Assembly (NCBI RefSeq): GCF_018350175.1
Contig: NC_058368.1
Span: 96,846,001-96,910,000 of the forward strand
Direction: 5' to 3'
DNA length: 64,000 nt
DNA from: Felis catus
Taxonomy: Eukaryota
Shown one piece after another: positions 33,832 through 52,540 of the stretch. Each line of letters begins with the position of its first letter. Position 1 is the first letter of the stretch. The notes under the pieces are model-generated. The model had not been told where the DNA came from and ran no database searches. It saw only the letters and a list, made by a program, of their open reading frames with translations. Made by a program: the position numbers and the translations under genes.

Positions 33832-34029
33832 TTTTAAAGTTTATTTATTTATTTTGAGAGAGAGAATGCATGAGTCCAGGAGGGGCAGAGAGAAAGGATG
33901 ACAGAGATAATCCCAAGCAGGCTCTGCACAATCAGCACAGAGCCCTAAGTGGGATTTCAACCCACGAACCGTGAGATCATGACCTGAGCCAAAGTCAGAC
34001 GCTTAACGACTGAGCCACCCAGGCGCCCC
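33832..34029 (-). mobile_element. Can-SINE
   Basis: gagccacccaggcgcccc end; tttatttatt tail. Confidence 0.95.
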
Positions 34030-45165: not shown

Positions 45166-48100
45166 TATAGGTCAACCAAGATGGTGGCTCAGAAGGCTCC
45201 TGAACTCCTCTCTAACCACTGACACACCAAGCAACTTCTTCTGAAAAAAATCCAGAAAGTAGCTGAAAGGTTCCCACACAACAGGCAAATAAGAAAATAT
45301 CCACAGGGAAACAGTTTTGAAAAGCTGAGACAGAGTGTGCCATAAACTCAACTCCTGGCACTATGCCAGACAATCAGGAAGTAACTCTCAACTCTGAGCT
45401 TCTGTCTGAAAAGCAAAGGGTTTGACCTCAAATTTAATACTTCAACATCAAAGACTCTCATCCAAGGCAAAGGCCTCTAAAATCCCTAGCTCTTGAAAGC
45501 CAGTGAAGCTTGTTTCCATAAAACCCCACGTCTAGCAAAAAAGTAGCAGGTTTTAATAGGTGTGCAAGCACTCACCATGGCTACCCACTCAGGGCTCAGC
45601 TTGGAGGGCACAGGGGAAGATGCTCATCTCCTTGTCATAGCACAAAGGTACAAAATCAATTATAAGAAGAAAAGAAAAGTCACAAACACGTGGAAATTAA
45701 ATAACATGATACTGAACAACCAATGAGTGAAAGAATAAATCAAAAGAGAAATCAAAAATATTTTCAGAGAAATTAAAATGCAAATACCACATACTGAAAC
45801 TTATGGGATGCAGCAAAAGTAGTTCTATAAGTCAAGTTCATAGCAATAAATGCCTACCTTAAGAAAAAAAGATAAGGCTCAAATAAACAACCTAATTTTA
45901 CATCCCAAGGAATTAGAAAAAGAACAAATGAAATCCAAAATTAGTGAAAGGAAAGAAATAATAAAGATCAAACTACCAATAAATGATATGGAGACAAAAA
46001 AGATAATAGAAAACATTAATGAAATCAGTGCTGTTTTTTTTAAAACATACCCAACTAGACAAACCTTTAGCTATACTTACCAAGAAAAAAAAGAGAGGAC
46101 TCAAATAAAATTAATTATGAATGAAAGAGGAGACATTCAACTGATGGCCACAGTAATACAAAGGATCATAAAAGATTAGTATGAACAATTTTATGCCAAC
46201 AAACTATAAATGAATAAATTCCTAGAGACATAACCTACCAAGAGTGAATCATTTAGAAATTGGAAATCTGAACAAATTACTAGTAAAGAGACTGAATAAT
46301 TTAAACCCCCCCCCAAAACAAAAGCCAAGGACCAGATGGCCTCACCAGTGAATTCTACCAAACATTTAAAGAAAAATTATTCCCAATCCTCAAATTCCTC
46401 CAAAAAAGTGAAAAAGAGAAAATGGTTCCAGATTTATTTTTCAGGAATTTTATTACCATAATACAAAAACCCAGCAAAAACACCACAGGAAAAGAAAACT
46501 ACAGGACAATATCTATGATAAATATAGTTGCATAAATTCTCAACATAATACTAGGAAACTGAATTAAACAGCACATTCAAGAAATCTTACACCATGACCA
46601 AGTGGATGATCCCTGAGAGGTAATGACGATTTCAACATATGAAAGTCAGTTAATATGATTTACCACATATATTAGAAAAAAGGGTAAAAATCACATAAAT
46701 CATCTAAATTGAGGCATTTGGCAAATTCAATACCCTTTCATGATAAAAGCTTTCAAAAAACTAGGAACAGAAGTGGATTACCACAGCATAATAAAGGCAA
46801 TATATACAAAGTCCACAGCTAACATCATACTCAACAGTGAAAACCTGAAAGCCTTTCCTTTAAGTCCAGCACAAAGCAAGGATACTCAGTGTCACCACTT
46901 CTATTCAATATAGTATTGAAGATCCAGCCAGACCAACTAGATAAGAAAAATAAATAAAAGGCATCCAAATTAGAAAGGAAAAAGTAATATTGCCCTTGTT
47001 TGCAGATGACATAATCTTATATAGAAAACTAAAGACTCTGTAAAAAACTATTATAAGTAACAAACAAATTTAGTAAACTTTCAGGATACAAAATCAATAT
47101 ACACAACTGGTTGTATTTCTATACACAAACAATGAACTACCATAAAGGAAATAAGGGAAACAGTCCTATTTACAAGAGCACCAAAAAGAATGAATTTAAC
47201 TGAGGAGGTGAAGACCAACATGTCAAAAACTACAAAGCAATGATGACAGAAATTAAGATACAAAGAAATAGAAAATCATCTTGTATCTATGAATTGTCAG
47301 ACATACTATTATTAAGAAGTCCATACTACCCAAAGCGATCTACAGATTCAATGCAATCTTTATCAAAATCCCAACGGCACATTTTACATAAATAGAAAAA
47401 CCAATTCTGAAGCTTATATGGAACCACAAAGGACTGTGAATAGGCCAATCAGTCTTGAACAAGAAGATCAAAGCTGAAGGCATCACAGTGACTGACTTCA
47501 ACCATCATTACAAAGCTACAGTAATCAAAACAGTATGGTATTGGCAGAAAAACAGACACAGATCAATGGAACAGAATAAACAGCTCAGAAGTAAACCTAT
47601 GTTATATGGTAAATTCATTCACAAAAAAGCAGCCAAAAATATACAATGGGGAAAGGACAGTCTCTTGAGTGAATGGAGTTGGGAAAACTAAATAGCCAGA
47701 AGCAAAGGAATTAAAATGGAGTCCCATTTCACACAATACCAAAAAACTAAAAACAAAAACAAAAACAAAACAAAAACTCAAAATGGATTAAAAACTTAAA
47801 CTGAAGACCTCAAACTATAGAACAGAGAGAGGGAAACATTGGGGGAAGCTTCAGGACATGGGTCCTGGTAATGATTTCATGGATATGATGCTAAACACAT
47901 ACCCAAAGAACCAAAAATAGAAAAATCAGACTATATCAAACTAAATACTTCTGCAAAGAAAACAATCAACAAAGTCAACCTACAGAATGGGACAAAATGT
48001 TTCCAAACCAGTTTATCTGATAAGGGGTATATTTCCAAAATATATAGGGAACTCTGAGAACTCAACAACAAATACACTAATAAATTTTTGAGAATTTGAG

Positions 48101-48393
48101 AATGGGCTAAAGATTTAGAGAGACATTTCTCCAAAAAAGACATACAAATAACTGACATGTATATGTAAAGATGGTCAATATTAATAACCAAATGAAAAGA
48201 GGCAAATGAAAACCACAATGAGATTTTACTTTCTGCCTATCAGGGTGATTATTATCAAAACAACAAAAGACAACAAGTGTGGAGAAGGATATGGGGAAAT
48301 GGGAACCCTGTACACTGTCAGTCGGAATGCAAAATTGTACGGCTGCTATGAAAAACAGTATGGTGGTGCCTTTAAAGAATAAAAATAGAACTA

Positions 48394-50245: not shown

Positions 50246-51055
50246 AAATAGAGTCCTTTCTGGTCATGTAATGGCTACAATCCTTTGCACTGGGCCAAAA
50301 TGCAGTTCTGGCACCCCTCTGGCTTCCTGGAAATGGTCCTCTATTTCCCCTACTTATCCACTGGTTTCCCAGGTTACTCCTTTGGAAGAAAGTCTGTGTT
50401 TCCAGAAACCCAGCTAAGTCATATTAGACCAAATATTTCTCAACATTTCCTCTCACTATGTTCAGGTTTTGGTGTTTTTGTCTTGCTTTGTTTTTTCCTT
50501 TGTTTGGTTGGTTGTTTTTTGTTTGTTTGTTTGTTTTACCTCTATTTAATCTTCCCTTGTCCCAATGCACACTTCCTAATCTTCAGCAAAGTTGGTCTTC
50601 ATTCATATATCCTTCCATTATTTGTGCTCAACACTAATTATTGGCTGTTTACAAAAAATGAATTCCAGAAATGCAAATTTGCTCTGTGAGTTTATAGAAG
50701 CGCACATGCATTTATGTATCTTCTACAACACAGTGATATTAATTTATTACATGCATAACTAGAGGGCCTATGCAGAATTTTTCTACAGAAACTTCCCATT
50801 ATTCACATTAATGTGGGAGGCAGAGGCAGATTTAGAAATAATGAAATTTACAAGCAGTCAAGTACAGTTTCTCAACAACTTTTTAAAAACCATCATGCTA
50901 TTAATTGTTTTGTCTCTGCTTTCTCTTTCTCTAATAGTATATATCTTCCTAAAGGTAAAATTATATATATATCTGCCAAAGATATAGAATATGCAAAAAA
51001 AAAATTAAGGTGAAGTTAGTAAAGTATTTAATTTGATATAGCAAAAAGTTTTGCA

Positions 51056-51624
51056 GGATCTGACAGCCCAGAGAAGGGCTAGAGGAGTAAGCATGGGGCC
51101 AGGGCCAGGTTGAGACCAGGCCTTGTGTGAACCCTCAACCCCAACCTGCTCACCCTGGAAATGCTGTGAGCAAGAACCCTGACTATGTCATACTGCACAA
51201 GATCCAGGCAGCCAGGAACATCTCCAAGACAAATGCCACATCACAGAACCATACCTATCTCACTGCTGACAATCTTGCCCTCAACCTCTATGATGAAAGT
51301 TTTACCCAGGGCAGGCACAGCCTCATCAAGGGTATAAAACTGAGCCTGGTGGCCAGGAACTCCACTCCTAGAGAAGAAGTTTTGTGAAGAGCCAGCTTGG
51401 GATCCAGCACACCCCCATTTCACCCCCACTATGATGTGATGGTCCCTTCTGCATCTATCCCCCCAAACCTTCTTGGATGCACAAAGCCTGACCAATTTTC
51501 AGGGGAATGATTTTGCTCTTCGCTGTGTGGCGCAGAGGTGTTGGGACAGTGTGACTTCTGAGTGATTTCCCTCTGTGTTTGTTCCCCCCTCCAGGCTGGT
51601 TTTTTATTACTTAAAAAAAAAAAA
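51056..51624 (+). pseudogene. PHB2: 5'-truncated PHB2 (prohibitin 2) retrocopy
   Basis: 51154-51339 translates to [62 protein letters not shown], 44/62 identical to the recalled PHB2 C-terminus [26 protein letters not shown]...SDSLIKGKK, with no introns; 1-nt insertion before the TGA (51341); PHB2-like 3' UTR ending tttttattactt + A12; TSD aaaaagttttgca (51043-51055) / aaaaagtcttcca (51620-51632). Confidence 0.93.
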
Positions 51625-52540
51625 GTCTTCCAACTTCATGTGACTCAAAATGTCTGAGATGTGCCTTAAAAAACAATGAAATGAACAGGTCAAAGAAGCA
51701 AAAACGGAAGTGGGTGAAAGTTACCTTAAGCCATGAGAAAAAATTTTTTGAGATTTCACTTCTATTTGATTCAGGTCTTCAAGACTTTGAGCCAACTGGG
51801 CGACAAATGAGCGTGTCTTGACATGCACAGCGAATCAAAAATCTCTTACGATATCATATCCTGAAGAAACACAGTTACCCAAGTCCATAGGTGTCTGTGT
51901 TCTCTGAATTCAAAACTCTCATAGTAATAAAGAAGTTACTATGTACTTGGCCATAACAAACTTTCCCTTTGAAGAAAATCTATGATTTAATTTCAAGGCT
52001 TCACCTTTTCTTTGAGTGGCACAGGGAAAGGAGATAAATGCCCTGATGAAGGAAAAGTCCAGGCACGTCTGTACATTTACTCACTCATAAAGTCATGAAC
52101 TTGCAATACATCTAATACACTGTCACTCACTTGTCACCTCCGAGATTCCTTTCTGGTCTTACATTCAGTTTCACCAGATGGGCTAATGGCCGTCTCAGTG
52201 CATTGGACCAGTAGTGCGGTTGTGGCCTCATCAGTGTTCACCTGTATTGACACCCAACACCATAATTCACTCCATGACTTACCATCTGTACTGGCTTTAT
52301 GTCCCCCTTCCAGAGCTCCACAAACCAAACACAGAGAGTCTCTTGCCAGCCAACAAGTACCCTTGTAATAATAACTCAGTAACTTAAGGTATTTTTTTTC
52401 TCTTGGGGGCTCAAGATATAAATACATAAAACCAAACCTATAAAACCGAAGTCAAGTCATATATAGCAGCTCTGCAGCTACAGTAAGCTTTCCAAACTCA
52501 GTTCTTCTCCCTCTTTTTTCTAGTGTGTATGACCCTTCTT

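Follow-up and report, generated by a model that had tools for sequence, protein, structure and literature searches.

We found that the window, the whole stretch of 64,000 nt of Felis catus DNA that was analysed, contains a PHB2-derived insertion which, read from its sequence, is a dead, 5'-truncated Type-3 scaRNA retroposon, and that the same anatomy is repeated in six independent insertions. The likeliest template was a polyadenylated PHB2 RNA beginning at scaRNA12. We infer such a template because it best accounts for an intron-bearing form giving six of the six informative copies of a housekeeping gene.

Searching the Felis catus genome with the window copy returned 16 matches in 12 places, one of which is the intron-containing parent PHB2 (contig C16, locus L017), with ten exons and a 299-aa ORF. 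Its intron 6 is 420 nt long and reads ATATCCTT...CCTTAAC...TCAC, which makes it an AT-AC U12 intron with a canonical 5' site and a CCTTAAC branch site about 10-15 nt from the AC 3' end. The relevant part of PMC2831892 gives a PHB2 intron, there numbered intron 5, as AT-AC U12 in both fly and human. In the parent, nt 69-330 of intron 6 are occupied by scaRNA12/U89 (Rfam RF01294, 263 bits, E 7e-76), a 262-nt composite C/D and H/ACA scaRNA; SCARNA12 is described in a passage of PMC10618143 as processed out of a PHB2 intron. If intron 6 were kept, an in-frame TAG at intron nt 13-15 would lie upstream of U89 and of junctions 7/8, 8/9 and 9/10. Excerpts of two studies bear on the splicing of this gene: splicing around the PHB2 minor intron was sensitive to minor-spliceosome inhibition (PMC8034651), and Phb2 was one of five U12 genes of which four were spliced with equal efficiency in ES and neural progenitor cells (PMC3695530). 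Downstream of the parent and on the opposite strand lie two mir-8/141/200 family precursors (L017:378-448 and 796-868). About 400 kb away, a partial and weak U89 match (L045, C16:41702186-41702242, +; 26 bits, model 81-137) is possibly a related scaRNA or a chance match.

The insertion and its parts are laid out in the window as follows:

51043..51055, + strand: 5' copy of the target-site duplication (TSD), 11/13 against 51620-51632, at zero offset to the onset of parent homology
51056-51624, + strand: the PHB2-derived insertion
51056..51065, + strand: last 10 nt of scaRNA12/U89 (positions 253-262 of 262), 10/10 identical to the 3' end of the parent's RF01294
51066..51153, + strand: the portion of PHB2 intron 6 lying 3' of the scaRNA (90 nt in the parent), whole, with 12 differences in 84 aligned columns
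51132..51139, + strand: copy of the U12 branch-point sequence, one substitution (T>C) from the parent
51154..51231, + strand: PHB2 exon 7 (78 nt)
51232..51308, + strand: PHB2 exon 8 (77 nt), spliced to exon 7
51309..51314, + strand: PHB2 exon 9, a 6-nt microexon, spliced on both sides
51315..51612, + strand: PHB2 exon 10, coding end and 3' UTR
51613..51624, + strand: A-tail of 12 A, the last 5 of which double as the start of the 3' TSD copy
51620..51632, + strand: 3' TSD copy, 11/13 match

The terminal box D (CTGA) of the U89 remnant lies at 51060-51063, and the remnant as a whole is below the length that can be scored alone against Rfam. The copy spans all of the 90-nt intron remainder, interrupted by a single 4-nt insertion and a single 6-nt gap relative to today's parent, and the AC 3' splice site is at 51152-51153. 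Over 51056-51153 the copy is identical to the last 100 nt of parent intron 6 at 85 of 98 positions (local score 134), compared with a score of 29 against exon 6. The three downstream junctions (7/8, 8/9 and 9/10) are precisely spliced, microexon included. The TSD adjoins the 5' end and the A-tail alike, and its 5' copy opens with an A-run, an L1-endonuclease-like site; the call leans on position as well as score, because an A-rich site 124 nt onward ties in score at a shifted offset. Much of what the earlier note had proposed from the letters alone is thus upheld by alignment to the cat PHB2 locus: an L1-type retrocopy with A-tail, TSD and its downstream U2 introns spliced out, and an intronic 5' part corresponding to the 3' end of an intron that is of U12 AT-AC and not of U2 type, with its branch site and AC end. 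Its caveat that 51098-51123 might derive from the preceding exon, leaving only about 30 nt of intron, fails because the intron scores 134 and exon 6 only 29, the latter mildly above shuffles (14/1000); all 98 nt are intronic, and we rejected an exon-6 origin.

The translated frame of the copy resembles human PHB2 residues 238-299 (E 2.4e-20), and a Pfam scan of this frame found 0 families. Its TGA (51341-51343) lies 3' of a 1-nt insertion, and about 35 nt of 3' UTR, including the AATAAA, are missing near 51599/51600 and present in sibling copies. The copy is an inert pseudogene that makes neither scaRNA nor protein and has no apparent function. Elsewhere in the window, an A-rich stretch at ~45600-48350 resembles by eye a decayed L1 body on the + strand, SINE copies lie near 48390, 49100, 49340 and 52540, and a weak Rfam tRNA match (33941-34024, - strand, 33.9 bits) is probably the head of a tRNA-derived SINE.

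Taken alone, the window copy is uninformative as to its template because it keeps only 10 nt of U89, and the case rests on its siblings. A genome search with exon 10 recovered the parent and 11 retrocopies with 3' UTR (all 12 candidates scored). These counts are lower bounds, and some short or old copies may have escaped the search. Five of the 11 end downstream of intron 6, and in one of these five the 5' piece is inverted. The other six extend past the 5' boundary of exon 7, and every one of them runs on into intron 6 and none into exon 6. They begin at U89 positions 139, 180, 180, 207, 252 and 253, all inside the scaRNA, the window copy being the one at 253. A further locus, L025:1501-1589 (C17:191493474-191493562, +), holds a U89-only retrocopy that starts at position ~181 and is followed by ~8 further nt, an A-tail and a TSD. 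None of the seven U89-bearing copies reaches U89 position 1, and the longest begins at 139.

A PHB2 pseudogene of the conventional type, reaching exon 6 through a spliced exon 6-7 junction, was not found by these genome searches. DNA searches with exons 1-3 and with exons 4-6 returned the parent only (1 candidate each), an exon-4 peptide search returned the parent and one intron-containing paralogue (56-59% identity) and no retrocopy, and no upstream PHB2 parts were present in the 14 retrocopy loci checked. A genome search with Pfam Band_7 gave 7 matches and proved too insensitive, because it missed the parent PHB2 itself; among the four Band_7 regions fetched, one is a PHB paralogue and three had no tblastn match to PHB2.

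Some of the retrocopies show further features. The inverted 5' part belongs to an exon-10 retrocopy at L011:1404-1756 (C2:11.78 Mb), and we take this arrangement to be the pattern of L1 twin priming. In three PHB2 retrocopies (L010, L004 and L014), SINEs lie directly in or after the A-tail; in L010 the TSD (18/20) is found beyond the SINE, and the 3' UTR is interrupted by a second one. At the site corresponding to window 51331-51333, all 7 aligned copies that cover it have a Gly codon, as does the human protein, and today's parent (L017 exon 10) has Ala; since the covering copies keep Gly, they predate the parent's Gly to Ala change.

The six intron-bearing copies are, on the evidence of their sequences and flanks, independent insertions. 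Their flanks differ and have only SINE-sized matches in common, and their TSDs are distinct. Clear TSDs fix the 5' ends of the window copy (11/13), C27a (14/15) and C18b (18/20, beyond a SINE), those of C1b (9/10) and C17 (12/13) are less clear, and those of C2a and C18a are poor; the 5' ends are accordingly uncertain by 1-4 nt, with the TSDs of C2a, C18a and C17 weak or ambiguous. Derived changes common to pairs of copies number 0-5, compared with 0.6-3.6 expected by chance (8 of the 11 copies aligned, the three shortest excluded). The window copy differs from today's parent in 92 of 537 columns and from the majority state of the copies in 52 of 529, and the copies lie 6-12% from that majority state, which at mammalian neutral rates presumably corresponds to some tens of millions of years. 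A 6-nt duplication is common to C2a and the parent and absent from the five other intron-bearing copies. We conclude from this shared duplication that C2a left the parent later; it stops where the window copy does, and the stop at 252/253 was therefore used at two different times. That all six copies descend from one intron-bearing insertion, spread by segmental duplication or secondary retroposition, could draw on their broadly similar ages and some common 5' ends. Unrelated flanks, distinct TSDs, the later departure of C2a and a star-like pattern in which shared changes are not in excess (at most 5, where 2.0 are expected) make a single origin scarcely conceivable, and we rejected a master copy or segmental duplication.

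The positions at which the copies stop are unlikely to be a matter of chance. With the truncation rate taken from the 5 stops in 4914 nt downstream of the intron, the probability that all six copies pass the 90-nt remainder and then stop in U89 is 1e-4 in this post hoc test (0.002 and 0.005 at two and three times the rate); for the looser event of six stops anywhere in the intron it is 0.002 (0.04 and 0.14, respectively). The ends also recur, at 180/180/181 and at 252/253, and the likewise post hoc probability of finding 4 pairs of ends no more than 1 nt apart among 7 ends is 0.0003-0.004, depending on the range assumed. As the U89-only copy stops there too, the 180/181 stop belongs to U89 and not to a class of template. 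Relative to the U89 boxes, position 139 lies just past box H, 180/181 in the apical stem of the 3' hairpin, 207 at 3-5 nt past ACA and 252/253 immediately 5' of box D. With so many features in 124 nt, this correspondence is suggestive only.

Several simple causes of the stops were considered and set aside. Shuffled sequences fold as well as the 3' hairpin region of U89 does (z -0.11), and several 3' UTR windows are at least as stable as the 80-nt windows taken across U89. Bare RNA structure is therefore not a sufficient explanation of the stops, and folding energy as their cause is unsupported. Cryptic U2 splicing into the intron was rejected, as no copy has upstream exons and no AG directly precedes any of the 7 ends in the parent, the nearest being 1 nt off, for C27a. 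A lariat-intermediate template with reverse transcription halted at the branch point was rejected as well, given that all six copies extend 80-200 nt beyond the branch site. By eye, none of the seven 5' junctions has a clear match between flank and parent, with at most a few bases of microhomology for C17.

As a control for minor introns that host no snoRNA, we used PFDN5, which we take to be a minor-intron gene. Its U12 intron in the Felis catus genome is 1138 nt long and of the GT-AG kind, with GTATCCTT and a branch-like CCTTAA, and Rfam found no match in it. Exon 3 is joined to exon 4 in all four PFDN5 retrocopies found, compared with an intron kept in 6/6 for PHB2 (Fisher p 0.005), a comparison with one gene and 4 copies of the GT-AG subtype, unlike PHB2's AT-AC. 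A second candidate control, SPCS2, gave 3 matches in one contig region and no retrocopies. One PFDN5 retrocopy (L050, C27:78.70 Mb) apparently lacks most of exon 2, with exons 1, 3, 4, 5 and 6 present, through exon skipping or later deletion. A search of the genome for U70 gave 26 matches, 15 of them above 100 bits (loci unclassified).

A route consistent with this anatomy can be proposed. Intron retention may have been the first step of template production, and the U12 class of intron 6 may make such retention more frequent. A PHB2 transcript with intron 6 unspliced would have been cut upstream of scaRNA12 and shortened in the 5'-to-3' direction until the nuclease ran into the scaRNP, leaving a stable scaRNA12-ended species, while introns 7-9 would have been spliced and the normal poly(A) site used. 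The cut itself might be due to NMD, a more tentative step which is plausible because a retained intron would bring in a stop codon ahead of both U89 and three spliced junctions. Starting from the A-tail, L1 reverse transcription would then have stalled within the structured or protein-bound scaRNA, in the window copy just past box D. A bolder version is that the PHB2 minor intron feeds a pathway in which intron-6 retention and NMD yield a stable cytoplasmic scaRNA12-capped poly(A) RNA, that this RNA was the main L1-mobilised PHB2 species in the germline of the lineage, out-competing spliced mRNA entirely, and that the ends at 139, 180, 207 and 252 are scaRNP toeprints. We regard this as possible and put it forward tentatively.

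In the main rival, a capped PHB2 mRNA of full length that had kept intron 6 would have served as template, with the scaRNP halting reverse transcription each time and no 5' trimming. The fossils do not separate this template from a scaRNA12-ended one, because no copy crosses U89: with all ends inside the scaRNA, and the 180/181 stop recurring on a different class of template, a stall would hide any upstream exons, and a constant stall would leave identical fossils, none of the seven U89-bearing copies having a scaRNA-matured 5' end. Also in its favour are the AT-AC intron, around which splicing responds to minor-spliceosome inhibition (PMC8034651, in part), and the existence of unprocessed snoRNA-retaining mRNAs, 13.7% for EIF4A1 in the preprint sections concerned (bioRxiv 10.1101/2021.01.21.427585). 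The trimmed form, however, makes up 86.3% of the retaining EIF4A1 RNA in the same sections. Moreover, an mRNA with a premature stop at intron nt 13 should be short-lived, and intron-retaining templates would have to outnumber spliced ones, since keeping the intron in six of six copies has a probability of 6e-5 if 20% of templates retain it and of 0.016 at 50%. We therefore consider a full-length template less likely than the scaRNA12-ended RNA, of which it is the strongest competitor.

Much less probable is that the 5' ends are real RNA ends, made by a germline promoter in intron 6 or by processing sites inside scaRNA12, the short RNAs being copied whole. Such ends would recur as those at 180/180/181 and 252/253 do, they could be defined just past box H (139) and ACA (207), and no canonical PHB2 pseudogene was found; but four end sites are spread over 115 nt, a promoter would not explain why L025, with its scaRNA-like and not mRNA-like 3' end, shares one of them, and no report of such a promoter was met in the literature searched on other questions. 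The least satisfactory of the template readings is the one with which the earlier note had accounted for the copy, namely that slow U12 splicing left the intron in ordinary mRNA and that L1 5' truncation ended within it at random, the scaRNA being incidental. The intron is indeed of the U12 AT-AC type and its 3' end is in the copy, and six uniformly placed ends in a 420-nt intron would all fall in U89 with a probability of 0.06, which is not decisive alone. Nevertheless, none of the six copies is spliced, although one would expect spliced mRNA to be the most frequent template, no copy extends through the scaRNA, the ends all lie in U89's 3' half (P 7e-4 for six ends placed uniformly) and recur, and the PFDN5 U12 intron was spliced out in 4/4. 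Of that note's overall interpretation, the L1 retrocopy, the retained end of an AT-AC intron and the spliced U2 introns therefore stand; slow U12 splicing followed by chance truncation does not, and we hold it to be very improbable. The scaRNA12-ended polyadenylated RNA remains the template that we favour.

These results have several implications. When a retrocopy of a minor-intron gene still carries its intron, slow U12 splicing does not follow from that alone, and any screen for fossils of U12 retention must first drop introns that host snoRNAs. The preferred reading predicts a scaRNA12-ended polyadenylated PHB2 RNA that is NMD-dependent and goes up when the minor spliceosome is weakened. 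Finally, the recurrent stops provide a modest natural sample of the sites at which L1 reverse transcriptase comes to a halt on a structured RNP.

How do these copies compare with known retroposons? Ordinary L1 processed pseudogenes have an A-tail, a TSD, 5' truncation and spliced U2 junctions in common with the window copy, which differs in keeping part of an intron; the five PHB2 copies that stop downstream of the intron look like members of that ordinary class. In the open-licence literature, which for Weber 2006 and the EIF4A1 preprint means the main texts, we met no report of PHB2/U89 retrocopies, and the parts of PMC4233243 and PMC3695530 consulted contain nothing on PHB2/scaRNA12 retrocopies. 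Closer relatives are the H/ACA snoRNA retrogenes covered in portions of PMC1802619, among them ACA40, which comprises host intron and all 3' exons and is traced to a partially processed hnRNA. They resemble the PHB2 copies in joining snoRNA, host intron and 3' exons through repeated independent retroposition, and differ in being a set of human H/ACA snoRNAs, with 0 occurrences of U89 in the main text.

The template that we propose has a counterpart in living cells. NOP56/SNORD86 gives rise to a cytoplasmic, 5'-snoRNA-ended polyadenylated RNA (cSPA) made by NMD, according to a section of the review PMC11028025, and the sections of the EIF4A1 preprint cited above describe an NMD-made EIF4A1/SNORA67 snoRNA-ended poly(A) RNA that sits mainly with 40S subunits. 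The putative PHB2 template would have the same layout, with a premature stop upstream of the scaRNA and spliced junctions downstream; cSPA RNAs are seen in cells, whereas the PHB2 case is known from DNA fossils alone, and the main texts of these two sources name neither PHB2 nor SCARNA12.

The nearest match is the Type-3 snoRT defined in the main text of Weber 2006 (PMC1687206): snoRNA, entire downstream intron, processed 3' exons, A-tail and TSD, with an origin ascribed to cleavage upstream and trimming to the snoRNA, and with truncated members ascribed to arrest of the reverse transcriptase. The window copy likewise has snoRNA sequence at its 5' extreme, the entire intron 3' of it, processed exons, an A-tail and a TSD, although the start at the snoRNA is present in truncated form only: all six copies begin inside U89, with no upstream intron or exon sequence. 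The U89-only copy at L025 resembles a truncated form of Weber's Type 1, with a 5' end common to two of the Type-3 copies. The class itself is known; scaRNA12/PHB2 and a U12 host intron appear to be new to it, and neither U89 nor PHB2 occurs in the main text of PMC1687206. Its Discussion calls it unclear by what route an RNA in the nucleus comes into contact with the L1 machinery, and if a scaRNA12-capped RNA was indeed made by NMD, cSPA RNAs would be the cytoplasmic, ribosome-near templates missing from that account. Compared with the Type-3 elements in that text, the PHB2 copies are set apart by the U12 AT-AC host intron, by a 262-nt composite scaRNA, by truncation of every copy within the scaRNA at recurrent sites and by the lack of any ordinary spliced copy among those found. 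The closest single likeness is to RPL10/U70, for which 30 of 42 human pseudogenes are given as Type 3, 12 of these 30 with partial U70 (PMC1687206, main text); there, as in PHB2, the snoRNA-bearing form dominates the retrocopies of the gene.
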